NCBI GenBank assembly: GCA_934182615.1
Contig: CAKPRO010000001.1
Location: 78,197 to 142,196, forward strand
Direction of reading: 5' to 3'
Source: an uncultured Bacilli bacterium
GTDB lineage: Bacteria; Bacillota_I; Bacilli_A; RF39; UBA660
DNA: 64,000 nt
A program made the translations under genes and the position numbers. The notes under the pieces are model-generated. The model was not told the DNA's origin and made no database searches. It worked only from the letters and a program-made list of their open reading frames with translations. This document shows positions 21,679 to 56,677 of this stretch, in pieces; the stretch's first letter is position 1; each line of letters begins with the position of its first letter.

Positions 21679-23208
21679 TTAATTCTCAATTCTTTGAAAT
21701 AAAACTTCAGCCTTATTAACCCTAGTACCTGACTTATATCCACCAAACTCACTAGTACTATCATAAGAAATATTATCAGTATTAATTTGATTAAATATCT
21801 TCTCACAAGTATCAGGAATAAAAGCTTGTAATAATACAGTACAAATTCTAATACACTCAACTAGATTATATAACACAGTAGCAAGTCTATCTTTTTTAGA
21901 TTCATCTTTAACAAGAACCCAAGGCATAGTCTCATCAATATATTTATTACAATCTCTAAGTACATCAAATATACTAGCAATAGCTTTAGAAACTTCTAAT
22001 CCATTCATATAATCTTCTACTACATCTTTTAATCCTATAGCCTCTTCAATCAATTTATTATCAATCTCTTCATTAACTTTAGTATTAGTAACAACACCAT
22101 CAAAATATTTATTAGCCATACCAATAGTTCTATTAACCAAATTACCAAGTACATTAGCAAGATCTCCATTAGTTCTATTAATTAAAGCTTCTTCAGAAAA
22201 ATTACCATCACTACCAAATGGAACCTCTCTCAAAACAAAATATCTAACAGCATCAACACCATAAGCATCAATATACTCTCTAGGATCTTTATAATTACCT
22301 AAACTCTTAGATATTTTACCACCATTAATAACTAACCATCCATGTCCAAATACCTTGTCAGGTAAAGGTAAATCAAGAGCCATCAACATAATAGGCCAAA
22401 TAATAGTATGAAATCTAACTATTTCTTTACCTACTATATGTAAATTAGCAGGAAAATATCTCTTAAATAGTGAATCATCTTCACTTAAATATCCTACAGC
22501 AGACAAATAATTAGCTAAAGCATCAATCCATACATAAACAACATGTTTAGGATCAAAAGTTACAGGAATACCCCAATCAAAACTAGTTCTAGACACACAT
22601 AAATCTTCAAGTCCAGGTTTAATAAAATTATTAAGCATTTCATTCTTTCTAGATTCAGGTTCAATAAAAGTAGGATGTTCCTCATAAAACTTAACTAATC
22701 TATCTTGATATTTAGAAAGTTTAAAGAAATAAGCCTCTTCAGATACCTCATTAACTTCTCTACCACAATCAGGACATTTACCATCTACAAGTTGTGTCTC
22801 AGTCCAAAAAGATTCACAAGGAGTACAATATAATCCCTTATATTCTCCTTTATAAATATCCCCTTGATTATATAGTTTTTCAAATATTCTTTGTACACAA
22901 ACAACATGCTCTGGATCAGTAGTTCTAATAAATTTATCATAACTAATATTTAAACTCTTCCATAAATCTTTAGAATTAACAACAATCTTATCAACATACT
23001 CTTGAGGAGTAATACCAGCCTCTTCAGCCTTCTTTTGTATTTTTAATCCATGTTCGTCAGTACCAGTTAAATAAAATACATCATAACCAGTAAGTCTCTT
23101 ATATCTAGCAATAGCATCCGCTATTATAGTAGTATAACAATGTCCAATATGAAAATTAGCACTTGGATAATATATAGGTGTAGTAACATAAAATTTTTCT
23201 TTATTCAT
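21679..23208 (-). CDS. metG: Methionine--tRNA ligase (short form lacking the C-terminal tRNA-binding domain)
   Basis: 509 aa with HIGH (ANFHIGHCY), KMSKS (KISKSLGN) and a CPDCG zinc knuckle. Confidence 0.95.
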   Translation of the reverse strand: MNKEKFYVTTPIYYPSANFHIGHCYTTIIADAIARYKRLTGYDVFYLTGTDEHGLKIQKKAEEAGITPQEYVDKIVVNSKDLWKSLNISYDKFIRTTDPEHVVCVQRIFEKLYNQGDIYKGEYKGLYCTPCESFWTETQLVDGKCPDCGREVNEVSEEAYFFKLSKYQDRLVKFYEEHPTFIEPESRKNEMLNNFIKPGLEDLCVSRTSFDWGIPVTFDPKHVVYVWIDALANYLSAVGYLSEDDSLFKRYFPANLHIVGKEIVRFHTIIWPIMLMALDLPLPDKVFGHGWLVINGGKISKSLGNYKDPREYIDAYGVDAVRYFVLREVPFGSDGNFSEEALINRTNGDLANVLGNLVNRTIGMANKYFDGVVTNTKVNEEIDNKLIEEAIGLKDVVEDYMNGLEVSKAIASIFDVLRDCNKYIDETMPWVLVKDESKKDRLATVLYNLVECIRICTVLLQAFIPDTCEKIFNQINTDNISYDSTSEFGGYKSGTRVNKAEVLFQRIEN

Positions 23209-23703: not shown

Positions 23704-23920
23704 AAAAAAATAAGATAGCCAAAGGACGAATAAATATCCGCGGTACCACCTTATTTTATGTAACATACACTCATTAAGTTATAACGTAACAACCGTCTAT
23801 ACCTATTAGATATAAAAGCTCCAGAACCATTTATAATAACTTTCATTATCTATTTCCACCAACCATAGACTCTCTATAAACTAATATTATTACTCTTTCC
23901 TTCATCGCATTACGAAATTA
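23704..23920 (-). promoter_or_regulatory. T-box riboswitch leader (probable Met specifier) with terminator/antiterminator, controlling dut-metG
   Basis: Minus strand carries the canonical T-box sequence AATAAGGTGGTACCGCGG (plus 23735-23752), then a terminator helix and a U-run ending at the dut start. Stem I candidate has a GA motif (GCGATGAAGG), an AGAGA box and an AAUGA specifier-loop candidate. The leader is preceded upstream by a TTGTAA-17-TGgTAAAAT promoter. Confidence 0.6.
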
Positions 23921-28051: not shown

Positions 28052-28636
28052 TTATAATTCATTCTTTTTATTCATACTATTATAAATTTGTTTCAATCTA
28101 ACAATATCACAATTAACAAAGTCCTCTAATAAATTATCTACTTTAGCATAAACCGCATCAAGTACTTCCCTTTGTTCTTTACTAAATTTACCAAGTACAC
28201 AATCAATAGCATCTATCGTTCTATCTTTTCCATATATTCCAATTTTAAATCTAACATAGTCTCTAGTTTGAATAGCCTTAGTAATACTCTTAAGACCATT
28301 ATGTCCTCCACTAGAACTATTATTAACAACCTTAATTTTACCCAATACCATATCCAAATCATCATGCATTATCAAAATATCTTGACTATTAATATTATAA
28401 AAATCAACAATTTTTTTAACAGCATTACCAGATAAATTCATATAAGTCAAAGGTTTAGCCACAATTACCTTTTCCCCATTTATATTAATATCAAATATAT
28501 CAGCCTCAAATTTTCTTTCAGTTCTAAAAGCACAACCATATTTTTTAGCAAACATATTTGCAAGTTCGTAACCAATATTATGTCTTGTATTTTCATATTC
28601 CTTACCAGGATTTCCAAGTCCCACTACTAACTTCAT
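28052..28636 (-). CDS. pth: Peptidyl-tRNA hydrolase
   Basis: LVVGLGNPGKEYENTRHNIG N-terminus; 194 aa. Confidence 0.95.
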   Translation of the reverse strand: MKLVVGLGNPGKEYENTRHNIGYELANMFAKKYGCAFRTERKFEADIFDININGEKVIVAKPLTYMNLSGNAVKKIVDFYNINSQDILIMHDDLDMVLGKIKVVNNSSSGGHNGLKSITKAIQTRDYVRFKIGIYGKDRTIDAIDCVLGKFSKEQREVLDAVYAKVDNLLEDFVNCDIVRLKQIYNSMNKKNEL

Positions 28637-29490
28637 TATTTTCCCTCCTTATGATATTCTTTATATACTTCATTTTTAGGTATTTTTCTATCCTTTGCTA
28701 CTTTCTTAATTGCAGTCATAACATCAAGTCCAGCTTTAATATACAAGTCAACAGCTTCATTAATAGACAAATTATCATCAATAACCTTTTCATCACATCC
28801 ACTTACAACAATAACAAATTCCCCTTTTTCAGGAATATTCTTAATAACATCACTAAGTTTTCCCCTATATACAGTTTCAAACTTCTTAGTAATTTCCCTT
28901 GAAATACTAATATCTCTATCACCAAATACTTCTAACATCATATTAAGTGTTTTCATAATACGATGCGGTGCTTCATAAAAAATCATAGTATATTCATTAT
29001 CCTTAAGCATTTCTAATTCATCTCTACGTTTAGAATCCTTACTATTTAAGAAACCATAGAATAAAAATGGTTGTGGTGATATACCAGAAGCAATCAAAGC
29101 ACATACAAAAGCAGTAGCGCCAGGTAATGCAATAACATTATAATTATTATCACTAATATACTTAACCGTTTTATACCCAGGATCACTTATAATAGGAGTT
29201 CCTCTATCCGTAACTAACCCAACAGAATAACCATTTTTCAAATATTCAAGTACCTTCTCCTTTAAAATATCTTCATTATGTTCATGTAAAGAAATAAGTT
29301 TCTTTTTAATACCAAAATTATTAAGTAAATTAAGTGTAACCCTCGTATCTTCAGAAAAAATAACCCCTACTTCTTCTAGTACTTTAACTGCTCTATAAGT
29401 CATATCATCCAAATTACCAATCGGTGTAGGAATCAAATATAAACTAGGAGTATCATTATAACTATTTTGTATCATGAGTATCATCTCCAA
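28636..29490 (-). CDS. rsmI: 16S rRNA (cytidine1402-2'-O)-methyltransferase RsmI
   Basis: LYLIPTPIGNLDDMTYRA tetrapyrrole-methylase-fold motif. The true start is probably a few codons inside the extended ORF. Confidence 0.85.
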   Translation of the reverse strand: MEMILMIQNSYNDTPSLYLIPTPIGNLDDMTYRAVKVLEEVGVIFSEDTRVTLNLLNNFGIKKKLISLHEHNEDILKEKVLEYLKNGYSVGLVTDRGTPIISDPGYKTVKYISDNNYNVIALPGATAFVCALIASGISPQPFLFYGFLNSKDSKRRDELEMLKDNEYTMIFYEAPHRIMKTLNMMLEVFGDRDISISREITKKFETVYRGKLSDVIKNIPEKGEFVIVVSGCDEKVIDDNLSINEAVDLYIKAGLDVMTAIKKVAKDRKIPKNEVYKEYHKEGK

Positions 29491-33042: not shown

Positions 33043-34701
33043 TCATTTATATTCTATAATACTATCTCCTACTAAATCAATCAAATCATCAATAGAAGAT
33101 TTTTCTTTCTTATTATTATCATTATTTTCTATTTCCTTAACACTATATTTAATTCCTTTTTTTAAATCATCAATATATTTATTTTTAATAACCTTCCATT
33201 TATCATTATCAACAGCAACAGCATAAACTCTATTACCAAAAAGTCTTTCTAATAATTTCTCAGTAACTTCTAAATTACTATTAATTCTACTTGCTGTAGA
33301 TGGATAATTACAAGATAAAATTACATATTGACTTGCTCCAACCACTATATTAGAATCCTTAAGTAACCCAGAAACGACAGAAAATTCTTCATCATCAATA
33401 TAATCATCTAAACTATTCCATCTTAATTTAAACTCTTCTAATACACTCTTTGAAGCTAAAGCCAAAGAATTATTAACTCTAATTTCAACTTGTTCATCAG
33501 AAATAGAACTATCTTTTATTTCCCGGGAAATATTTTCATTATTTTGGGAAATATTTTTCTCTTTTTTCTCAATTATTTCCCGGGAAATAATTTTTTCACT
33601 ACTTTTCTCATTATTTACCATTAGATTTCCAAATTTTAAATCAGAATATTTAAGAATTGAAATCATAAATATAATTGAACTATGATTAGAAATCTTTATA
33701 GAATTTTGAACACCATTAAGGCTTTCTATTAAATCATATAAATCTTTATCATTATATTTATCAGAAACCAATTTGATATAATCGTTTTTAGTAGAAATAC
33801 TTGATAAAATATTAGCATTTTTATACAAAATAACATCTTTAAGAAAAATAAGCATTTCTTCAACAAACTTATTAATGTCTTTACCAGACTCATCTAAATA
33901 ATCAACAAATTCTATTAATTTAACCTTATTATTATTTTTAATATTATCTAATAATGTATAAAGTTCTTCATATGAAACCGAACCATTAACTTTATAAACA
34001 TCATCGATAGTAATATTATCATTAGAATAAGCTACCAATTGATCTAAAAAGTTTATAGCATCTCTCATTCCACCATCAGATAATCTTGCTATTTCATATA
34101 ATGCATCATCATCAATAGTAATATCTTCAAGATTAGAAATTTCTCTAAGTCTTTCCACTATTTTTTTATCATCAATCTTAGAAAATCTAAATTTTTGACA
34201 TCTTGAAGCTATAGTTAATGGTATTTTATGAGGCTCAGTCGTAGCTAAAATAAATATAACATGACTAGGAGGTTCCTCCAAAGTCTTTAAAAGTGCATTA
34301 AATGCTTGTGTTGTAAGCATATGAACTTCATCTATTATATAGACCTTATATTTAGAATTACTAGGAACTAAATTAATTTTATCCCTTAATTCTCTGATTT
34401 CATCAACACCATTATTCGAAGCAGCATCTATTTCAACAATATCATTACTATTCAAATAATTAAGACAATTATAACATTTCCCACATGGGTTACCATCAAC
34501 TAAATTTTCACAATTAACTAATCTTGCAATAATTTTAGCAATAGTAGTCTTTCCCGTTCCTCTAGGTCCACAAAAAAGATAAGCATGGGACACTTTTCCA
34601 GAAACAATAGCATTTTTAATAACAGTAACAACCTCTTCTTGTCCATAAACACTATTAAAATCAACAGGTCTATATTTTCTATACAAAGCTAAATATCCCA
34701 T
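33043..34701 (-). CDS. dnaX: DNA polymerase III subunits gamma/tau
   Basis: GPRGTGKTT Walker A, CGKCYNC zinc module and an SRC motif (TIASRCQ); 552 aa. The linker region contains two in-frame Noc-binding palindromes. Confidence 0.95.
   Translation of the reverse strand: MGYLALYRKYRPVDFNSVYGQEEVVTVIKNAIVSGKVSHAYLFCGPRGTGKTTIAKIIARLVNCENLVDGNPCGKCYNCLNYLNSNDIVEIDAASNNGVDEIRELRDKINLVPSNSKYKVYIIDEVHMLTTQAFNALLKTLEEPPSHVIFILATTEPHKIPLTIASRCQKFRFSKIDDKKIVERLREISNLEDITIDDDALYEIARLSDGGMRDAINFLDQLVAYSNDNITIDDVYKVNGSVSYEELYTLLDNIKNNNKVKLIEFVDYLDESGKDINKFVEEMLIFLKDVILYKNANILSSISTKNDYIKLVSDKYNDKDLYDLIESLNGVQNSIKISNHSSIIFMISILKYSDLKFGNLMVNNEKSSEKIISREIIEKKEKNISQNNENISREIKDSSISDEQVEIRVNNSLALASKSVLEEFKLRWNSLDDYIDDEEFSVVSGLLKDSNIVVGASQYVILSCNYPSTASRINSNLEVTEKLLERLFGNRVYAVAVDNDKWKVIKNKYIDDLKKGIKYSVKEIENNDNNKKEKSSIDDLIDLVGDSIIEYK
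33517..33599. promoter_or_regulatory. Two Noc-binding-site palindromes (TATTTCCCGGGAAATA) inside the dnaX coding sequence
   Basis: Exact 16-mers at 33517-33532 and 33584-33599, translated in frame as ...ISREI... / KIISREII in the tau linker. A TTGGGAAATAT half-site lies between them. Confidence 0.7.
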
Positions 34702-34748: not shown

Positions 34749-35177
34749 TCATTTTTTTCTCTTTTTTTTAAAAAAATCAGATAATATTTCAGAGCATTTA
34801 TTGCTTTTAATATAATTCAAAGAAACATATGGCTCTACAGTTGTTTTATTGTACATTTGTATGCCTTGTCTGATAGTGCCATAATAAATATTTTTAATTC
34901 TACTCTCCATAATAGCTCCAACACACATCATACAAGGCTCTAAAGTAACATATAAAGAGCAGTCATCTAACCTCCAACTCCCCAATTTTCGACACGCTCT
35001 GCTGATAGCCACTATCTCAGCATGCATTATAGCATCATTTTCCCTCTCTTTTTCATTGTATCCACAGGCGATGAGCTCATTTCCTCGAAATATGGCACAA
35101 CCAACAGGTATTTCATCCAAATTATAAGCAATTTTAGCTTGCTCAAAAGCCACTTCTAATTTATCAACATCCATCAT
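34749..35177 (-). CDS. tadA: tRNA-specific adenosine deaminase
   Basis: HAE and PC..C CMP/dCMP deaminase zinc motifs (HAEIVAI, EPCMMCVGA). Preferred start is the ATG at 35177, which has an AGAGGAGAAG RBS. The longer ORF to 35210 begins with MFHVEH, which is simply the parS palindrome read as codons. Confidence 0.85.
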   Translation of the reverse strand: MMDVDKLEVAFEQAKIAYNLDEIPVGCAIFRGNELIACGYNEKERENDAIMHAEIVAISRACRKLGSWRLDDCSLYVTLEPCMMCVGAIMESRIKNIYYGTIRQGIQMYNKTTVEPYVSLNYIKSNKCSEILSDFFKKKRKK

Positions 35178-35203
35178 AATATCTTCTCCTCTATGTTCCA
35201 CGT

Positions 35204-35968
35204 GGAACATAAAAAAATATTATCATAGTAATTATCAAATTTCAAAATATTATATTTTAAATTAAACAAAACATTTAAAAATCTCATGTTCCACGTGAAA
35301 CATTGATTGTTTTTTTATAATTAAATTTATTATTAATAATCATTAACAACAAAAATATAATAATAAAAGAATATAATTCAAAGATTACAAAAAAAATATA
35401 AATAGCTTTTTAAAATAAATAAAAATTGTTGATGAATTCATGTTCCACGTGAAACATTAAAATAATCATTTATCTAAAGCAAGTTATTATTAATTTCAAA
35501 TATACAAAAAATAATAATTAAAACATATAAAAATAAAATACGTAATAATTTAATTTGAAAATTATATAGGAAAAAGCTGTTGATAATCTATGTTCCACGT
35601 GAAACATAGAATTTACTTTCAAATTTTATTTAATATTTAATACATAAAACATTTCTAATCAACATAGTATTAAAAATTATTTCTATTAAATAATTTTTTT
35701 TATGGCTAATTTAATATATTTTTTACATATATTAATTAACTGTTGATAACCAATGTTCCACGTGGAACATGAGTTATTATTTTATAATTAAATTTGTTAT
35801 TAATAATCATTAATGAATAAAATACAATAATAAATATATATAATTCAAAAATCACATAACAAATATAAACGACTTTTAAAAATAAATAAAAAATTGTTGA
35901 TAACCAATGTTCCACGTGGAACATGAAGTTAGTTATCTAATTATTATTGCTATGTTTCACGTGAAACA
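35204..35968. repeat. Tandem array of seven parS (ParB/Spo0J centromere) sites, ~150-bp period, each unit with a DnaA-box-like TTATCAACA
   Basis: 16-mers at 35204-35219, 35287-35302, 35441-35456, 35591-35606, 35754-35769, 35908-35923, 35953-35968. Three are TGTTCCACGTGAAACA (exact B. subtilis consensus), three are the symmetric TGTTCCACGTGGAACA, one is fully palindromic TGTTTCACGTGAAACA. Spacers are paralogous AT-rich ~130-bp units ending in TGTTGATAA(CC). Confidence 0.8.
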
Positions 35969-36007
35969 TAGTATAATTTTAAATCTAATTTATCAACAGG
36001 CATAAAA

Positions 36008-36086
36008 AAAGATACACACACTAAATAAATGTTAAAGCTGCTGACTTCCGTCCCTGACTTGGTTCCATCATTTAATGTTGTATCAA
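36008..36086 (-). ncRNA. ffs: Small (4.5S-type) signal recognition particle RNA
   Basis: Minus strand contains CCAAGUCAGGGACGGAAGUCAGCAGC, matching the conserved SRP domain IV (AGGUCAGGUCCGGAAGGAAGCAGC). 5' and 3' ends can pair; a U-run lies at 36001-36010. A perfect promoter sits upstream. Confidence 0.6.
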
Positions 36087-36091
36087 CAAGT

Positions 36092-36233: not shown

Positions 36234-36249
36234 TATTTCCCGGGAAATA
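36234..36249. promoter_or_regulatory. Noc-binding-site palindrome TATTTCCCGGGAAATA
   Basis: Exact 16-mer within an extended AATTATTTCCCGGGAAATAA, downstream of gyrA. Confidence 0.65.
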
Positions 36250-40826: not shown

Positions 40827-41927
40827 TCAAATTATTTCCCGGGAAATAATTTTACCATTTTCTATTCTATAAACATTAGCTTTATTTCTCACATTTTTAT
40901 CAATATTTTCAATATCCGTAGTAGTAACTATCGTTTGAATATCATTATCTAAATATTTAATTACCTTATTTCTCTTATCAATATCTAATTCACTAAATAT
41001 ATCATCCAAAAGTAAAATAGGCGTATCAGACAAAACATCCGTAAATAATTTAACTTCTGCTAACTTAAGAGCAAGTACAGCACTCCTTATTTGTCCCTGT
41101 GAACCATATAAAGATAAATTCTTTCCATTCAAATCAAAATAAAAATCATCTCTATTAGGTCCAATAAAAGTAATCTTATACTGAATTTCTCTTGATAAAT
41201 TACTTTTAAGTTTATCTTTAAATAAATTATTATCTAAATTACTAACATTAGAAGTATATATCATCTTAAGTCCTTCTAATCCTGTAATAGAACTAAATAT
41301 ATCATCTATATATTTATTAACTAAGTCTACATATTTCCTTCTAAAATTATAAATAACTATTGATAAACCAATATATTTATCATTAAGAATATCTAAATAA
41401 TTCATATCACTCTCTTTATTAATATTAATAATCTTCAAAAATTCATTTCTTTGACGTAAAACTAAATTATAATTATTTAAATTTGCTAAATAAATCTTAT
41501 TAATTTGACTAATTTGAATATTAAAGTATTTTCTTCTACAAGATGGACTATCTTTAAATATTCTAATACTATCACTACTAAAAAGAATAACATTCATTTT
41601 AGAAATATAGTCACTTAATTTTTTGATCTCTTTTTTATTTATCTTAACAACCTTACCATTCTCATTAATTAATAGTTCAAGTTCATCATAAGAACCATTA
41701 TAATCAACAATTCCTTTAATCATTGAATATCTACTATTAAAATTAATAAGATTCTTATCACTAATAGATAAAAAAGACTTCGTAACAGCAAGTACATAAA
41801 TAGATTCTAGTAAATTAGTTTTTCCTTGAGCATTATCTCCTATTATAATATTTAAATTATTATTAAATTCTAATAAAATATCATCATAATTACGATAATT
41901 TTTTAAATAAATTTTTTGTAATTTCAA
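40827..41927 (-). CDS. recF: DNA replication and repair protein RecF
   Basis: GDNAQGKTNLLE Walker A and an ABC signature; 366 aa. The last eight codons (KIISREII) and the TGA stop are supplied by a Noc-binding palindrome. Confidence 0.95.
   Translation of the reverse strand: MKLQKIYLKNYRNYDDILLEFNNNLNIIIGDNAQGKTNLLESIYVLAVTKSFLSISDKNLINFNSRYSMIKGIVDYNGSYDELELLINENGKVVKINKKEIKKLSDYISKMNVILFSSDSIRIFKDSPSCRRKYFNIQISQINKIYLANLNNYNLVLRQRNEFLKIININKESDMNYLDILNDKYIGLSIVIYNFRRKYVDLVNKYIDDIFSSITGLEGLKMIYTSNVSNLDNNLFKDKLKSNLSREIQYKITFIGPNRDDFYFDLNGKNLSLYGSQGQIRSAVLALKLAEVKLFTDVLSDTPILLLDDIFSELDIDKRNKVIKYLDNDIQTIVTTTDIENIDKNVRNKANVYRIENGKIISREII
40833..40848. promoter_or_regulatory. Noc-binding-site palindrome forming the recF 3' end (part of a 29-bp repeat identical to 53707-53735)
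   Basis: CAAATTATTTCCCGGGAAATAATTTTACC at 40827-40855 is identical to 53707-53735. Confidence 0.7.
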
Positions 41928-43974: not shown

Positions 43975-45345
43975 CTATATTCTCTTTTTTAACTCCTCAA
44001 TTACTGTTTGTAACTGATAATTTGTCTCTAAATCTTTCTCTATTTTTTGATATGCACTTATTATTGTTGAGTGGTCTCTACCTCCAAAGTAAGTTCCCAT
44101 CTTTGGATATGACTCATTTGTCATTATTCTACACAAGTATATAGCTATTTGCCGCTGATAGTTTATATCCTTACTTCTTTTTTTACCTTTTAAATCTTCA
44201 ATATCTATCTTAAAGTACTCACAGACAATTCTCTGAATCCTATGAATATCATTTTTATATACACTACGTTCACTAATTTTATCTTTTAAAGCCTCAATAG
44301 CAATATCTAAAGTAACAACTCCATGATTCATCATTAGTGCATAAGCAAAAACCCTTGTAATTGCTCCTTCTAACTGTCTAACATCGGAATCATTAATATT
44401 AGCAATATACTCAATGACTTCAATCGGAATATCTTCCGCTGCCTCCTGATGAGATATCTTCCTTTTAATAATATCTACTCTCAGTCCAAAATCAGGTGGA
44501 GTGATATTAGCAGTAAGACCCCAATTAAACCTTGTAATAAGCCTATTTTCTAACATCTTTAAATCATCAACAGACCTGTCGGAAGCTATAATAATTTGTT
44601 TATTTGAGTCATGTAACTGATTAAAAGTATGGAAGAATTCTTCTTGTCCTTTAGTAGCGGACCCTAAAAATTGAATATCATCAATAATTAGAACATCAAT
44701 ATTCCTATACTTATTCTTAAAAGAATCAATCTTATCAAAACTATTCTTCTCATTATTTCTAACCGCCGCTATATAATCATTAACAAACTGTTCACTTGAC
44801 ACATACAAAACCTTCTTATTCGTATTTTGAATAATATAATTACCAATAGCATGCATTAAATGTGTTTTACCAAGTCCACTTTTACCATATAAAAATAAAG
44901 GATTATAAGCTTTACCAGGTTTTTCCGCCACCGCTCTAGCAGCAGTAAAAGCAAACCTATTCGAGTTACCTACAATAAAACTATCAAAAGTATATTCGCT
45001 ATTTAGATTAGCGGAAGCACTAGTTTGATGTGGAACTCCCATACTTTCATTAGAAGTACCAATAATAACCTCTTCATTATTATCACTAATTTCATTAATT
45101 TCGTTTTCTAAAATAAATTTAAAATTAAAATTTGTTCCCGTAATAGAATTAAAAGTTTCTTCAATATCATCAATATAATTTTCTTCTAAATGTTTTTTAT
45201 GTAAAGCTAAAGGAACGATAATAGTGGCAGTACCACCATCTAATTTATATAATTTAGTATCCTTAAACCAAGTATCATAAGATAAAGGAGTAATACGTTC
45301 TTTAATTTTATCAAGAAATTCATTCCATAAATTATCCGTATTCAT
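43975..45345 (-). CDS. dnaA: Chromosomal replication initiator protein DnaA
   Basis: 456 aa with an AAA+ domain (GKSGLGKTHLMHAIGN) and a C-terminal DnaA-box binding domain. Confidence 0.97.
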   Translation of the reverse strand: MNTDNLWNEFLDKIKERITPLSYDTWFKDTKLYKLDGGTATIIVPLALHKKHLEENYIDDIEETFNSITGTNFNFKFILENEINEISDNNEEVIIGTSNESMGVPHQTSASANLNSEYTFDSFIVGNSNRFAFTAARAVAEKPGKAYNPLFLYGKSGLGKTHLMHAIGNYIIQNTNKKVLYVSSEQFVNDYIAAVRNNEKNSFDKIDSFKNKYRNIDVLIIDDIQFLGSATKGQEEFFHTFNQLHDSNKQIIIASDRSVDDLKMLENRLITRFNWGLTANITPPDFGLRVDIIKRKISHQEAAEDIPIEVIEYIANINDSDVRQLEGAITRVFAYALMMNHGVVTLDIAIEALKDKISERSVYKNDIHRIQRIVCEYFKIDIEDLKGKKRSKDINYQRQIAIYLCRIMTNESYPKMGTYFGGRDHSTIISAYQKIEKDLETNYQLQTVIEELKKRI

Positions 45346-45439
45346 ATCAAAACCTCCTTAATCAAATCTGCCATTAATCTTATTATATCTCAAAAAAAAA
45401 TTTTGTCTAGATATTTTTTTTAATTAACAGGTAAAATAA

Positions 45440-45580
45440 CAAGTTATCCACAACTTATCAACAATATAATACCATATAAAATAAGACTTTAAAAGACTTT
45501 TCCACAATTTTTGTCAATTTTTGTTGTCAACAGTCAACAGCTTTACTTTTCCACAGCCCTGTGGATATTGTGGATAAATA
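45440..45580. other. oriC part 1 (upstream of dnaA): DnaA-box cluster
   Basis: TTATCCACA at 45445-45453 and 45569-45577 (reverse); TTATCAACA at 45455-45463; TTTTCCACA at 45498-45506 and 45547-45555; ATATCCACA at 45560-45568 (reverse). Confidence 0.8.
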
Positions 45581-45609
45581 AAAAAAGCCTTGATTTATAA
45601 GGCTTTATT
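45581..45609 (-). terminator. Intrinsic terminator of the HerA-like gene
   Basis: AAGCCTT-gatttat-AAGGCTT hairpin followed by a U-run on the minus strand. Confidence 0.5.
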
Positions 45610-47370
45610 CTAGTTACTTTTCCACTGTATCATCCACTTGTCAAATATTTTAGCATTTGTACTCTGTGGTTCTGGATTAGGAAGTTGCATTTTTACAATA
45701 AGTGGAATCTTCATCATCTTACCAAATGCAACACAAGTACCAGATTGAAGTGATTTTTGTTTTTCAATAACATCACTACTAATATTAGGAACCATCTTTT
45801 CAATATACTCTAAATCACTAGGATGGTTAATTTTAAATATTAAGAAATTACTACACTGTGATAAAACAGTTTCAGATAGTTCAGTAGGTCTTTGCGTAAT
45901 TAAATCAAGACATATACCAAATTTTCTACCTTCTTTAGCAATTCTTTCAAATATATTATATCCAAGAATATTAATATCATTATCCTTCTGAACATATCTA
46001 TGAGCCTCCTCTAGCATAAGATGCATTGGCATACTACCTCTAGTAGGAAGCTTTTTAGCAAAGTTAAAGATAATTCTTGCATATACTTTAACAAGAGCTT
46101 TAGCAAATCTATCATCAATATTTTCTAATACAAAATTAATAATTTGTGCTCTCTTATTATTACTCACTAATATTAAATCAGAAATAAATTCATTTACAGT
46201 AATAAACTTATCACATTCAAAATACTTTCTCATAGAACTATTAGCAATAGTATGTAATTTAACTTTTAAAGCTGTAGCTTCAGCATAAGATTTCTCATTA
46301 AGAAGAAGTCCTTCAGATATTAATGTAAAGTTAAGAGCTACTTCTAAATCGTCAATTGTAAAGAAAGTAGGTACATAATCCTCATTCCATTTAGTTTCAT
46401 TATCGACAAACTTCTTAATATATTCAGTAATAAGAATTCTTTCTACAAATTGCCCTTGACTATCAATTTCAAAACATTTTCTAAAAGTTCTAGTATAACC
46501 AACACCAGGTACTTCAACATCTAAGTTAAGTTCAGGTGTATGACAATCAGTCAAAATAGAAAATATTTGGTCTCTAATTCTAGCAGATACTTGATTAGAA
46601 TACATAACTGATACAATAGCGGATGCAATTAAATGGTTTTTATATCTATTAGATTCCTCATCATTTTTAGCAAATAAAGAAACATAAGCAAGCATCTTTT
46701 CAATAATCATAATTTGTGAATAATCAGTTACATCAAGTATATTAGCATAATCATCAACAGAAAGTAACCATAAAGGTAATTTAAGAATATTAACTCCCTT
46801 ATCAGTATCAGTGCTAAACATCTTGTAATTAAAATTATAATTATAACTAGAAATACTACTAAAAGCACTATCATATTCATCAGTATTATTAAATATAAAA
46901 ATAATACTATTAAAAGGAATATAATTAGGCATAGTAAATAAATTTTGTACTAATCTAGCAACACCATAAGTTTTACCAGAACCAGTATTACCAAAAATAG
47001 CACTATGATTGCTCCACATATCATCAATATTAATTTTAATAGGGCTATCGTTATACAAAGGAGAAAGTCCTAGCATCATTGCAGTATTGTCATTATACCC
47101 AGTAAGTTCTGCTAATTCATCAGCATTAATAATTCTAATTTTAGAATTAATACTAGGTTTTCTAATAATACCATCATAAAATTTGCTTCCATGAAATTCT
47201 CCTAAAAAACTAATTTTAGCCTCTCCGTTCATAATTTCTTCTACTTCACCTAATATTTTTTTATTATTTTCTTCAAAAACAACATTTAAGTTAAGTAAAT
47301 CATCAGTAATAACATTATCAATTTTAACAATAGCATAATTTTTACTGATAGCAATAATTTCTTTAAACAT
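45610..47370 (-). CDS. HerA/FtsK-like (DUF87) P-loop ATPase with N-terminal HAS-barrel-like region, solitary
   Basis: Walker A AIFGNTGSGKTYG, Walker B LMLEEAH, and the GICLDLITQRP arginine-finger segment typical of HerA-type ATPases. Start assigned to the ATG at 47370, which has an AAGAAGGG RBS. Confidence 0.7.
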   Translation of the reverse strand: MFKEIIAISKNYAIVKIDNVITDDLLNLNVVFEENNKKILGEVEEIMNGEAKISFLGEFHGSKFYDGIIRKPSINSKIRIINADELAELTGYNDNTAMMLGLSPLYNDSPIKINIDDMWSNHSAIFGNTGSGKTYGVARLVQNLFTMPNYIPFNSIIFIFNNTDEYDSAFSSISSYNYNFNYKMFSTDTDKGVNILKLPLWLLSVDDYANILDVTDYSQIMIIEKMLAYVSLFAKNDEESNRYKNHLIASAIVSVMYSNQVSARIRDQIFSILTDCHTPELNLDVEVPGVGYTRTFRKCFEIDSQGQFVERILITEYIKKFVDNETKWNEDYVPTFFTIDDLEVALNFTLISEGLLLNEKSYAEATALKVKLHTIANSSMRKYFECDKFITVNEFISDLILVSNNKRAQIINFVLENIDDRFAKALVKVYARIIFNFAKKLPTRGSMPMHLMLEEAHRYVQKDNDINILGYNIFERIAKEGRKFGICLDLITQRPTELSETVLSQCSNFLIFKINHPSDLEYIEKMVPNISSDVIEKQKSLQSGTCVAFGKMMKIPLIVKMQLPNPEPQSTNAKIFDKWMIQWKSN

Positions 47371-47451
47371 AATCGCCCTTCTTTCTATTCTAAGTAAATT
47401 ATACCAAATAAATATCAAAAAATAAATAACTTTTTAATAATTTTTTAGAGT

Positions 47452-47495
47452 AGTTCGCACTTTGTTGCTCACTATTTTTAAAGCCTAGGGTCTTT
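47452..47495 (+). repeat. REP-like element (copy d) in the ltaS-like 5' region
   Basis: AGTTCGCAC...GCTCACTAT...TTTTAAAG-CCTAGGGT-CTTTAAAA. Confidence 0.55.
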
Positions 47496-47596
47496 AAAAA
47501 ATAATTTTAAGCCAAAATTGTCTTAAAATTAATATTTTTCTTCAATTATTTACAAAATATTAAATATATAGTATAATTTCATTAGTGGTGATTTTT

Positions 47597-49570
47597 GTGA
47601 AAAAAGAAGTAAAACAAAAAAAGAATAAAAAAAATATAAATAAAAAAACAAAATATGAAGAAATAAAAAATAAAGTTAAAGATTTTATTTTAAAATATTA
47701 TTATATATTAATTATATCATTACCTTTTATATTAATCGATATAATAACTAAAATATTGGGATACAAAATACATTTCTATGGAATATTTAGATTAGTACCA
47801 TGTTTATTTACTCTCACATATATAATCCTAATGGTTGGAATATCCCTATTCTTAGAAAAAAAGAAAGGTAAGATAGTATATACAATCTTTTTTATATTAG
47901 CCTTTGCTTTATTTATAACTAACAATATCTACTATTCAATGACTAACACATTCTTTGATTTTAGTTTAATTATGTTAGCAGGAGAAGGCTCAGACTACTT
48001 TATGGATGCTATTTTAAATTGTAATATTTGGGTATATATATCAAGTGTAATAATAATAATATCTTATATATTTGGATTAAAACAATTTAAAGAAAGAAAG
48101 AAAACAGACTTAAAAAAAATAATAAAAGTATTTTTCTTATTTTTAATTCTTCATTTAATAACTCCATTATTCTTAGGAAAACCAAATGATACCTTAACAT
48201 GGAGTACATGGAGAAATCCAAGAAATATATATATAAATTTCAATGATAACAATAAAAGTATGATGGTATCAGGAATATATGAATATAGTATTAGAAATTT
48301 CTATATAACATTTATTAAAGCTAAAAAAACAGATAATGAAGAAGATATAACTTTTCTTGAAGAAGAATATAATAAAGAAGAAGAAAATTATCAAACAAGT
48401 TATACTGGAAAATTTAAAGATAAAAATGTAATCTTTCTTCAATTAGAGGGAACCGATAACTGGTTAATAACAAAAGAAGATACACCAACTCTATATAATA
48501 TGATGAATAATTCTATTAACTTTACTAATCATTATTCATATTATAATGGCGGTGGATCAACCTTCAATTCAGAGTTTGCAGTAAATACAGGATTTATAAC
48601 ACCTCTATCATATACCCAAAACGCTTATTCATTTAATAAAAATTCATTCCCATATTCATTAGCAAAATTATTAAAAAATAAAAATTATAGTGTTAATGCC
48701 TTCCATATGAATGATGGAGAATATTATTCAAGAGCAACAAATTATAAAAATTGGGGTTATGATAACTATTATGGTTTAAAAGAACTAGGAACATATAAAG
48801 ATGATGCCTATACATTAGATAGAGAATTAATATTAAATGAAACATTTAAAGAAAAAATGTTTAGTGAAGAAAAATTTGCCGATTATATAATAACTTACTC
48901 AGGACACTTACCATTTACTACAGAAAAAGGTGTATGTAAAAAATTAGTAACTGAAGATATATTAAAAGAACAAGGATTAGAAGAACTTCCATCAGATTAT
49001 ATTCTACCTACTATGAGTGAAGAAGATTGTGCTAGAAGACAAGCTAAAGAAACAGATTATATGGTTGAACTTCTAATAAATACACTAACTGAGAAGAATT
49101 TAATAGACAATACAGTAATAGTAGTATTCACTGATCATTATCTATATACCTTATCAGATCAAACAATATTAGATAAATATAAAGATACAAGTAATAATTT
49201 AATAAATCATACTCCATTCTTTATATGGGACAATGGAAATACTAAAAAGAAAGTAACATCTGTAACATCACAATTAAATATATTACCTACTATAATAAAT
49301 CTATTAGGTTTAGAATATCATCCTAATTACTATATAGGAAAAGATGCTTTAAATGGTAGTTACAATGGCATAGTCTTCTTTAGTGATTATTCATGGTATG
49401 ATGGAAATGTATATGTTGATGGCGGAGCAGTAACCAATAACAAATACATAGACCAAGTATCATTAGAAGATAAAAATTATTATATAAACTACATTATAAG
49501 AAAAAACGATTTAACATTAAAATATAATTATTTCAAAAAGATATCTACTTCAAAAGATAAAGAAGTATAA
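47597..49570 (+). CDS. ltaS: LTA synthase family protein (LtaS-like sulfatase-fold, polytopic N-terminus)
   Basis: Five N-terminal TM helices plus an extracellular sulfatase-like domain (YNGGGSTFNSEF). Start assigned to GTG 47597, which has an AGTGGTGAT RBS. Same start sequence GTGAAAAAAGAAGTA as the 5257 gene. Confidence 0.75.
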   Translation: MKKEVKQKKNKKNINKKTKYEEIKNKVKDFILKYYYILIISLPFILIDIITKILGYKIHFYGIFRLVPCLFTLTYIILMVGISLFLEKKKGKIVYTIFFILAFALFITNNIYYSMTNTFFDFSLIMLAGEGSDYFMDAILNCNIWVYISSVIIIISYIFGLKQFKERKKTDLKKIIKVFFLFLILHLITPLFLGKPNDTLTWSTWRNPRNIYINFNDNNKSMMVSGIYEYSIRNFYITFIKAKKTDNEEDITFLEEEYNKEEENYQTSYTGKFKDKNVIFLQLEGTDNWLITKEDTPTLYNMMNNSINFTNHYSYYNGGGSTFNSEFAVNTGFITPLSYTQNAYSFNKNSFPYSLAKLLKNKNYSVNAFHMNDGEYYSRATNYKNWGYDNYYGLKELGTYKDDAYTLDRELILNETFKEKMFSEEKFADYIITYSGHLPFTTEKGVCKKLVTEDILKEQGLEELPSDYILPTMSEEDCARRQAKETDYMVELLINTLTEKNLIDNTVIVVFTDHYLYTLSDQTILDKYKDTSNNLINHTPFFIWDNGNTKKKVTSVTSQLNILPTIINLLGLEYHPNYYIGKDALNGSYNGIVFFSDYSWYDGNVYVDGGAVTNNKYIDQVSLEDKNYYINYIIRKNDLTLKYNYFKKISTSKDKEV

Positions 49571-49605
49571 AAAAAGCTCACTTTAATTTAGTGAACTTTT
49601 TCTTT
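49571..49605. terminator. Bidirectional terminator between the convergent ltaS-like and GT2 genes
   Basis: AAAAAGCTCACT-ttaattt-AGTGAACTTTTT hairpin. Confidence 0.45.
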
Positions 49606-51111
49606 TACATTAGTATCAATATCATCAATAGTAACTTTACTATCATGTGGTATAGGTTTCCATGTAACTTTCATAAATAATGCTGCATAAGTAGTATATC
49701 TACCAATAATATCAAATATTGGCCAAGTAATAGTATATAATACTTTTTTCTTAAAAGTCATCTTTTTAATATTTTTTCTTTCAATAATAAATACATAAAC
49801 AGCTACCCACATGTTCTGTATATACATACCCATTCGATAGAATAATCTAAGCCAAATAGCAGTAATCATTCCAATAAATAAAGCATTAATACCAGGCTCT
49901 ACAGAAATCTTAATTGAAAATAAATTTCTAAGACCTTTAGCCAAATAAGTACCACCACTAAGTAAATCAATATTATTAATACCATTGTTGTAGTAGTAGC
50001 AACTTCCCATAATAAGAATAACAATAATCCATTTAGCTAAATTAAATACTGAAAAAGGTGTTAATTGAAGTAAAGTATCATAAGAAGCAAATCTATGTCT
50101 AATAGATTCAATAATACTAAGAATAATATCTTTAAAAGATTTATTATTTTTCTTAGTATTTTCTCTCCACTTAGTTTTAATAAATAATTTACCAAAGAAA
50201 ATATTTAAAAATAAATAAGGACCACTTTCACAGAAGGCAAGTAAATGACCTTTTGACCATCTAAGTCTTTGTCTTAATGCAATCTTTAAGCTAGTAGGTT
50301 GCTCATCATAAAACATAGCCTCATCATTATAAGTAATCTGATATCCCTGTGCAACAGCATCTGCTGTAAGTGCTCTATCCTCAGTAAGAGAAGTATATTT
50401 CCAGCCATCCTTTACTATCTCACTAGCAAATAAGAAACCAGTACCCTGTATATTAGTAGCTAGTCTAAGAACAGACCTAGCTCTATGATTACATCTTATC
50501 GATCTAATCCAGTGAATAGCATAAGTAGAAGCAATCCAGTTTTCATCAAAATTCTTCGTATTACGATAAGAAGTAATAATTTTTTCACCAGAATCAAAGG
50601 CATCATTCATCTTAGAAATATAATTTCCATTAAGAAGATTATCAGCATCAAAGATAAAGTATCCCTCAAAACTCATTCTACCATAATCTTCACCTATTTT
50701 TTCTAATAAATATTGAAGAGCAAATCCTTTAGTTTTATGTTCATTATCAAATCTTTCGTAGCAGATAGCTCCATGCTTTCTAGCAATATCAGCAGTATTA
50801 TCAGTACAATTATCCGCTACTACAAAAGTAGTAATAAGTTCTTTTGGATAATCTTGTTTATTAATACTATCAAGTAAGTTACCAATGACATTTTTTTCAT
50901 TTCTTGCTGCTATCAATATAGCATATTTATGTTTATTTTTAGCAGGTTTAAACTTCCTAGTAAAGAAAACACCAATTAACCAATATAAAGTTTTATAAGC
51001 CATCATAATAACAAGAATTTTACCAATAATATTGTATACATTTTTCCAAGCAAGATAAGAATCTCCTATTGAATTAATAATATTAAAAAAATACATCACA
51101 TACAACCTCAC
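49588..51111 (-). CDS. Processive family-2 glycosyltransferase (membrane; PgaC/IcaA/cellulose-synthase-like)
   Basis: GT-A fold with DAD (FIFDADNLL) and QRLRWSKG (QxxRW) motifs, plus C-terminal TM helices; 507 aa. Confidence 0.7.
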   Translation of the reverse strand: MRLYVMYFFNIINSIGDSYLAWKNVYNIIGKILVIMMAYKTLYWLIGVFFTRKFKPAKNKHKYAILIAARNEKNVIGNLLDSINKQDYPKELITTFVVADNCTDNTADIARKHGAICYERFDNEHKTKGFALQYLLEKIGEDYGRMSFEGYFIFDADNLLNGNYISKMNDAFDSGEKIITSYRNTKNFDENWIASTYAIHWIRSIRCNHRARSVLRLATNIQGTGFLFASEIVKDGWKYTSLTEDRALTADAVAQGYQITYNDEAMFYDEQPTSLKIALRQRLRWSKGHLLAFCESGPYLFLNIFFGKLFIKTKWRENTKKNNKSFKDIILSIIESIRHRFASYDTLLQLTPFSVFNLAKWIIVILIMGSCYYYNNGINNIDLLSGGTYLAKGLRNLFSIKISVEPGINALFIGMITAIWLRLFYRMGMYIQNMWVAVYVFIIERKNIKKMTFKKKVLYTITWPIFDIIGRYTTYAALFMKVTWKPIPHDSKVTIDDIDTNVKEKVH

Positions 51112-53711: not shown

Positions 53712-53727
53712 TATTTCCCGGGAAATA
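53712..53727. promoter_or_regulatory. Noc-binding-site palindrome immediately 3' of polA (29-bp copy identical to the recF 3' end)
   Basis: CAAATTATTTCCCGGGAAATAATTTTACC at 53707-53735. Confidence 0.7.
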
Positions 53728-56414: not shown

Positions 56415-56677
56415 TATTTCCCAGGAAATAATTTATTAGTTCGAATCTACGTTTCTCACTATCATTAAAGCCTAATGTCTTTAATGAAAAATATGAAGCC
56501 TATAAAAATAGTCTTCATATTTAACAACATTTTTAATTTAGGTATTATTTTATATAATATTTATTCATTAAAATAACAAAAAACACTTTAAATAAAGACT
56601 ACAGGCTTTATTTAACAGTGAGAGATTACAAGCTCGAACTGAAAAAAAATATTTCCCAAATTATTTCCCGGGAAATA
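56415..56677. repeat. REPIN-like composite: Noc site + REP-like copy b (plus orientation), ~105-bp spacer, REP-like copy c (inverted) + Noc site
   Basis: TATTTCCCAGGAAATA at 56415-56430 (1 mismatch); REP-like 56438-56483; inverted REP-like 56594-56641; TATTTCCCGGGAAATA at 56662-56677 plus an ATATTTCCCAAA half-site. Lies in the polA-polC intergenic region. Confidence 0.65.

Follow-up and report, generated by a model that had tools for sequence, protein, structure and literature searches.

In a 64-kb stretch of DNA from an uncultured Bacilli bacterium (contig CAKPRO010000001.1; hereafter the window), the dnaX gene, which encodes the tau-type clamp-loader subunit of DNA polymerase III, contains two palindromes that match exactly the consensus of the Noc-binding site (NBS), both in its 14-bp form, ATTTCCCGGGAAAT, and as the 16-bp site TATTTCCCGGGAAATA; four other copies in the window do so too. 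We consider it probable that the dnaX palindromes are loading sites for a Noc-type protein of the ParB family, as predicted from their sequence, and that they occupy the one part of dnaX in which any sequence can be tolerated. They appear to be genuine NBS-type sites that are held in a permissive linker and kept at the DNA level, which makes them elements of a known kind, in a host clade that is new for them and at an unusual, recurrent location. That the organism has a Noc homolog, that this protein would bind at the dnaX sites, and the effect that binding would have, we infer by analogy with better studied species. The bacterium is an inhabitant of the gut; proteins identical to its own are present in Hadza and other human-gut assemblies, and the GC content of the window is 25-30%.

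Two NBS palindromes in the variable linker of DnaX

The dnaX gene (33043-34701, minus strand, identified from its open reading frame and Pfam matches) encodes a protein of 552 amino acids. As the first-pass annotation of this DNA had reported, two exact copies of ATTTCCCGGGAAAT lie inside the open reading frame, at 33518-33531 and 33575-33588, and are read in one frame. They are 57 bp (19 codons) apart and each is read as ATT TCC CGG GAA AT[A], giving the peptide ISREI at residues 372-376 and 391-395 of DnaX; the surrounding peptide, ...EKIISREIIEKKEKNISQNNENISREIKDSS..., is also as quoted in that annotation. Site 1, the first in the protein, is centred in a 22-bp palindrome, AATTATTTCCCGGGAAATAATT (33571-33592), read K-I-I-S-R-E-I-I, and site 2 in the 16-bp palindrome TATTTCCCGGGAAATA (33517-33532), read E-N-I-S-R-E-I-K. 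The spacer between them (33533-33570, minus strand) contains one 21-bp in-frame repeat unit (E-N-I-S-Q-D/N-x), which holds the half-site TTGGGAAATAT (33544-33554; N-I-S-Q on the coding strand) that had been noticed previously. The further remark that the palindrome gives the same peptide from either strand is true but trivial.

The exact 14-mer occurs six times in the window, together with one copy that has a single mismatch, whereas shuffled versions of the window contained on average 0.11 matches even when up to two mismatches were allowed, and none to TTCCCGGGAA. All six occurrences of CCCGGG in the window fall within a full NBS. The 16-bp core TATTTCCCGGGAAATA is common to all six copies and most have AAATT/AATTT flanks, beyond which no sequence is shared. 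Two other identities were considered for the dnaX sites and rejected. They are not parS, the other type of ParB-family site, as they do not match TGTTNCACGTGAAACA and differ from it at the specificity positions; and a restriction site (CCCGGG is that of SmaI) is ruled out, since conservation spans 16-24 bp and the sequence is that of the NBS.

Both sites are located in a variable, low-complexity linker (approximately residues 357-401; 33499-33633, minus strand) between the clamp-loader domains and the C-terminal domain. Pfam analysis of DnaX placed DNA_pol3_delta2, AAA and DNAX_ATPase_lid over residues 20-227 and found no domain in the linker. Orthologs align well up to around residue 355 and again from around residue 402, but between these points length and sequence are wholly different, and no other segment of DnaX is hypervariable in both respects. 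In an AlphaFold2 model the linker is coil with a predicted local confidence (pLDDT) of 22-35, compared with 75-89 for the flanking C-terminal domain; the model is poor overall (mean pLDDT 58), and as weak support it suggests that the linker may be a permissive, disordered segment able to tolerate an arbitrary peptide. Within the species the linker varies from 27 to 64 amino acids, and in orthologs that have no NBS from about 10 to 70 amino acids (mostly 40-70).

Conservation, recurrence and codon spelling of the linker sites

The closest genome among the matches listed in our genome scan has 45% DnaX identity, and close relatives were obtained through exact-protein look-ups. In a sister species with 86% DnaX identity (L089), sites 1 and 2 are both exact. 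In a second sister species, with 73% identity (L088), site 1 is exact in a linker that has otherwise diverged, and site 2 is absent. For broader comparison we assembled 36 other low-GC species loci, mostly from metagenome-assembled genomes (MAGs) of uncultured Bacilli with 38-46% overall DnaX identity, together with a few other low-GC Bacilli. These loci contain 49 further NBS copies in 601 kb. Ten of the 36 have an exact NBS in the dnaX linker, 11 sites in total and always in the ISREI frame, compared with 0.8 expected from the density of the flanking DNA. The linker is therefore approximately 14-fold enriched over flanks that are already dense (Poisson probability 1e-9, a figure that ignores shared ancestry), and the remaining 51.8 kb of dnaX coding sequence contains no NBS. 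No NBS was detected in or near dnaX in the loci of Bacillaceae, Staphylococcus and lactobacilli that we examined. The position of the site within the linker ranges from its start to its end among orthologs.

The same part of dnaX is also used for parS. An exact parS is present in the linker, in an equivalent frame (GTT YCA CGT GAA ACA, encoding VSRET or VPRET), in L032 (11152 and 11197), L035 (11068 and 11137), L036 (11236) and L076 (2151). Three of these are low-GC loci; the fourth, L036, is just above the GC cut-off.

Analysis of codon usage separates the DNA from the peptide that it encodes. Across the open reading frames of the window, CGG accounts for only six of 667 arginine codons, and three of these six are in NBS; TCC accounts for 19 of 1164 serine codons. 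ISREI in long open reading frames of the low-GC related loci is spelled with TCC-CGG in 30 of 33 instances, against a background in which TCC and CGG make up 4.4% of serine and 2.1% of arginine codons, respectively. The three instances spelled otherwise all belong to a conserved motif of rsmI, and one of them is the rsmI gene of the window itself (28636-29490, minus strand), which encodes ISREI as ATT TCA AGG GAA ATT and has at this place an NBS with two mismatches (28892-28905). In seven related MAGs the same rsmI motif, SISREI, is an exact NBS. Taken with the TCC-CGG spelling elsewhere, this indicates that an NBS either overlays a pre-existing motif synonymously or sits where the peptide is irrelevant. 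rsmI thus provides a natural control that distinguishes selection on the DNA from selection on the peptide, the same peptide being written in other codons where no site is kept.

The rare codons, the exact conservation between species within a diverged linker, the recurrence in the linker of many lineages and the use of the same place and frame by parS together imply that the dnaX sites are selected as DNA and not as peptide. The first-pass annotation had offered two alternatives, and the first of these, that selection favoured protein-binding sites at a permissive place within an essential gene, is backed by the codons, the conservation, the recurrence and the parS sites. If the protein behaves as Noc does in Bacillus subtilis and Staphylococcus aureus, it would nucleate as a dimer on the 16-bp TATTTCCCGGGAAATA, then bind cytidine triphosphate (CTP), close to form a sliding clamp and spread over several kb, a span that would here cover a parS array beyond tadA (described below) and the dnaA-gyrA gene cluster. 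In Bacillus, the spread protein tethers the DNA to the membrane. ISREI would in this scheme be a passenger, with selection acting on the DNA and the disordered linker absorbing the peptide.

Strain variation, candidate binding proteins and rival explanations

Comparison of strain alleles points to the origin of the pair. The 21-bp in-frame unit between the sites, GAA AAT ATT TCC CAA GAT AGA (E-N-I-S-Q-D-R), is present in zero to three copies among alleles, with three perfect GAAAATATTTCCCAAGATAGA/AAA units in the spacer of strain L086. The half-site noted in the window is one such unit, and from the alleles we conclude that site 2 and the half-sites are part of an in-frame 21-bp tandem repeat, the copy number of which varies between strains. 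Tandem Repeats Finder, applied to the window allele, returned only a 38-bp period, the 21-bp unit being evident from the strain alleles. Strain L087 has a single hybrid site, with its left flank from site 1 and its right flank from site 2, which reads as a deletion by recombination between the identical palindromes. Site 2 and the half-sites would accordingly have been born by slippage of the 21-bp unit, and recombination between the two identical palindromes would collapse the pair again. Site 2 is occasionally ISWEI or FSREI and is otherwise retained in nearly all alleles of the species. Nearly all variants among alleles P0005-P0071 are changes of R to Q or W, and these are transitions at the central CpG of the site, consistent with this CpG being a deamination hotspot, possibly because of methylation of CCGG or CCCGGG.

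Noc is known to nucleate on the 16-bp NBS and to spread as a CTP-dependent sliding clamp, and in B. subtilis an N-terminal amphipathic helix is required for its binding to the membrane (PMC8429893). The residues that confer NBS-type specificity on Noc are Q173, K179, K184 and R201 (PMC7383237; like PMC8429893, work of Jalal et al., 2020/2021). To search for a candidate protein, we proceeded from B. subtilis Noc to representatives at 50% identity, then to a profile of AT-rich Noc-type proteins and from there to protein and metagenome searches. Noc-type proteins, recognised by GK.QS..ANK.RLL ... ERHAR, are common in AT-rich gut Bacilli; at three of the four specificity positions just named they have Q, K and R. 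Their genes adjoin rsmG, which they typically follow, and a second ParB-type gene is often located 1.3-2 kb from them; the one named top match is labelled Clostridium sp. CAG:433. These proteins (P0386, P0316, P0372, that encoded at 10001-10975 of L090, and others) often have low-complexity inserts of 100-450 amino acids before the C-terminal dimerisation domain.

A number of these results weigh against the interpretation of the palindromes as maintained Noc-type loading sites. In roughly half of the allele clusters listed, the CGG of site 1 is CAG or TGG and the peptide ISQEI or ISWEI. An exact copy of at least one site persists in nearly all alleles, but a few (P0035, P0045, P0053 and P0056) have none. 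Since site 1 is often changed while nearly all alleles retain a site, selection on each site is weak and the two are redundant. The presence of NBS on the DnaX tree is patchy, which implies frequent loss or gain and, together with the variable position in the linker, indicates turnover and not a single frozen ancestral site. No ParB or Noc gene was found in the window, in the 10 kb beyond either of its ends or in 89 dnaX-type loci using a GERRxRA regular expression, tblastn with Spo0J and Pfam. None of the Noc-type genes recovered by the protein and metagenome searches could be linked to the window species, and the top matches are mostly from another abundant species. Only three NBS are present in approximately 860 kb around the Noc-type genes of similar organisms, so these organisms may use few NBS, concentrated near dnaX and parS, unlike the scattered pattern of Bacillus. 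Finally, the Noc-type proteins of AT-rich gut Bacilli have no counterpart of the N-terminal amphipathic helix of B. subtilis Noc, which makes a role in nucleoid occlusion uncertain.

Much of the same evidence could be accommodated if the sites are real NBS but near-neutral within dnaX, arising and decaying wherever sequence is unconstrained near the cluster of parS and NBS, with the second copy produced by slippage and no benefit attached to the location. The CpG transitions in site 1, the alleles that have no exact site, the patchy distribution and the variable number of 21-bp units are all as this explanation would have it, and other NBS also occupy places where they do minimal harm, such as gene 3′ ends and intergenic spacers. 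It is less easily reconciled with a 16-bp core that is unaltered within a diverged linker at 73% protein identity, with the enrichment of the linker over its flanks or with the retention of at least one exact site by nearly all alleles, and drift would neither create nor keep a GC-rich 14-mer at about 25% GC. We therefore regard near-neutrality as rather unlikely.

The second alternative of the first-pass annotation, an in-frame insertion of a short mobile palindromic element resembling the Rickettsia palindromic elements or miniature inverted-repeat transposable elements, fared poorly. Identical palindromes are indeed present in frame in several open reading frames (twice in dnaX and once in recF), but they have only 16-24 bp in common, with no flanking element or target duplication and no conserved unit of around 100 bp or more. 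Alignment of DnaX orthologs, which had been proposed as a check for an insertion of about 90 bp, revealed no discrete added block, and the length of the linker overlaps that of NBS-free orthologs. The word 'inserted' is consequently misleading, because the only change in length is the in-frame duplication or deletion of 21-bp tandem units between the sites. Moreover, the site in rsmI and other conserved genes consists of synonymous changes to an existing conserved motif, and distant Bacilli have an NBS of identical sequence. A mobile origin is thus highly improbable.

We attach similarly little weight to a role in the mRNA, in which the two copies would pair as a long stem and pause ribosomes near runs of A, giving a shorter gamma-like form of DnaX as in E. 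coli frameshifting. A 17-bp stem is possible (minimum free energy -30.3 kcal/mol, z = -3.4), the sites come just after domain III, the region in which E. coli produces gamma, with A-runs between them. However, any pair of identical palindromes can form such a stem, in most species and some strains there is a single site and hence no stem, there is no conserved slippery heptamer, the A-runs are inside the loop and not upstream of the stem, and the palindrome is also common outside genes. The least credible alternative is that ISREI has a function of its own in DnaX, such as in protein interaction, and that the palindrome is incidental: the peptide does recur in the linker of many species in a constant frame, but there it is spelled with the rarest codons, strains freely swap R for Q or W, other lineages have the parS-encoded VSRET or VPRET instead, and its place within the linker varies from start to end.

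parS arrays, genomic setting and relation to known systems

The remaining NBS in the window lie outside dnaX. One exact copy (36235-36248) is intergenic, between the 3′ end of gyrA and the signal recognition particle (SRP) RNA gene. Another (40834-40847), immediately upstream of gyrB, lies in the final codons of recF (G-K-I-I-S-R-E-I-I-stop) and is kept in the sister species L088. A third (53713-53726) is located 8 bp past the stop codon of polA, upstream of fpg, and a fourth (56663-56676) 5 bp past the stop codon of polC, with a half-site 5 bp away; the copy with one mismatch is at 56416-56429. The copies at recF, polA and polC are each within 10 bp of a stop codon, which suggests that NBS are preferentially placed at gene 3′ ends in tightly packed operons.

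An array of seven parS (TGTTYCACGTGRAACA, with the extended core ATGTTYCACGTGRAACAT) at a spacing of approximately 150 bp is located between tadA and the SRP RNA gene (35194-35968). The dnaX pair and the NBS at 36235 bracket this array from opposite sides, and the presence of both NBS and parS implies that both types of ParB-family site are in use in this genome. Nearly all related low-GC loci have a similar array, of 2-11 parS, upstream of tadA-dnaX. Most parS copies in the window are followed, after a few bases, by TTATCAACA, which resembles a DnaA box with one mismatch. The longest open reading frame for tadA (34749-35210) begins with MFHVEH, the translation of the first parS (35194-35210). 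In public gene calls tadA encodes 142 amino acids from a start downstream of MFHVEH, and the additional N-terminal residues are probably spurious, being produced by the embedded parS.

Strictly alternating tandem arrays of parS and NBS were observed upstream of dnaX in four loci of related uncultured Bacilli: L069 (8617-9315), L058 (1-433), L009 (8653-9321) and L007 (2885-2951). The array in L069 comprises six parS and six NBS with a period of approximately 125 bp and spacings of 56-67 bp. We know of no description of composite parS-NBS arrays. With the bracketing of the parS array in the window, they raise the possibility, which we put forward tentatively and do not favour, that the NBS of these genomes are parts of a composite centromere with parS, the dnaX linker being one recurrent slot for them, and not scattered marks for nucleoid occlusion.

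In the wider setting, the genes on the minus strand are ordered dnaA (43975-45345), dnaN, a ComK-like gene, recF, gyrB, gyrA, the SRP RNA gene (36003-36089), tadA, dnaX, ybaB, recR and holB. The order tadA-dnaX-ybaB-recR-holB is conserved, and searches with dnaX returned thousands of homologs. Neither GC skew nor gene strand switches at dnaA (examined over 43975-50000 of the window), and on the upstream side of dnaA are a HerA-like ATPase (45610-47418), an LtaS-like protein and a glycosyltransferase, and not rpmH-rnpA. It is therefore possible that the origin of replication is not next to dnaA in this genome, and given the absence of a switch in orientation and GC skew, 'origin-proximal' describes the window in terms of gene content only. 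Elsewhere in the window, an ordinary T-box leader (23719-23914) precedes a gene for a class I aminoacyl-tRNA synthetase (21679-23208).

NBS were reportedly the subject of work in B. subtilis by Wu and colleagues in 2009. B. subtilis and S. aureus share one core consensus, and binding spans 8-10 kb per site (Pang et al. 2017, PMC5540599); the consensus used for comparison here is that of PMC8429893, PMC7383237 and PMC5540599. The sites described here resemble those of both species in the identity of the 14-bp core and the 16-bp site, in their multiple copies and in their coexistence with parS, and by analogy the mechanism would be expected to follow the same course of nucleation, CTP-dependent clamp formation and spreading over several kb. 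They differ in being far denser (six in 64 kb) and clustered around the parS array, in forming a tandem pair inside an essential gene with a strain-variable repeat between the copies, and in that the Noc-type proteins of related AT-rich Bacilli, unlike B. subtilis Noc, have no membrane-targeting N-terminal helix.

A precedent for a site within a gene is the parS of B. subtilis that was reportedly found within spo0J by Lin and Grossman in 1998. There too, a 16-bp palindrome of the ParB family in an open reading frame dictates a short peptide, whereas in dnaX the site is an NBS and its host a disordered linker that has been used repeatedly in different lineages. Rickettsia palindromic elements are mobile repeats of approximately 100-150 bp that lengthen the protein in which they reside. 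As in those elements, the dnaX palindromes are translated in frame in a permissive part of an essential protein; in contrast, they share only 16-24 bp, add no length and correspond to a known protein-binding site. The half-sites have a parallel in Pseudomonas aeruginosa, where ParB binds half-parS (PMC10419367, PMC5961200), in that isolated halves of a ParB-family palindrome lie beside full sites, although those of dnaX belong to a coding repeat of 21 bp.

With these findings, the range of the NBS/Noc system, which until now had been studied in Bacillus and Staphylococcus, is extended to gut Bacilli that are uncultured and genome-reduced. The dnaX linker offers a clean natural example of a DNA-binding site that overrides codon preference and dictates the peptide in an essential gene, and the peptides ISREI, VSRET and MFHVEH in annotations of these genomes can be read as markers of an embedded NBS or parS. 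The co-clustering of parS and NBS is the lead most worth following and may bear on a possible interplay of two CTP-dependent clamps. If the NBS do belong to a composite centromere, the NBS-binding paralog without a membrane helix would act with or against ParB, for instance as a second clamp loader or as a boundary to the sliding of ParB, and not as an inhibitor of division.

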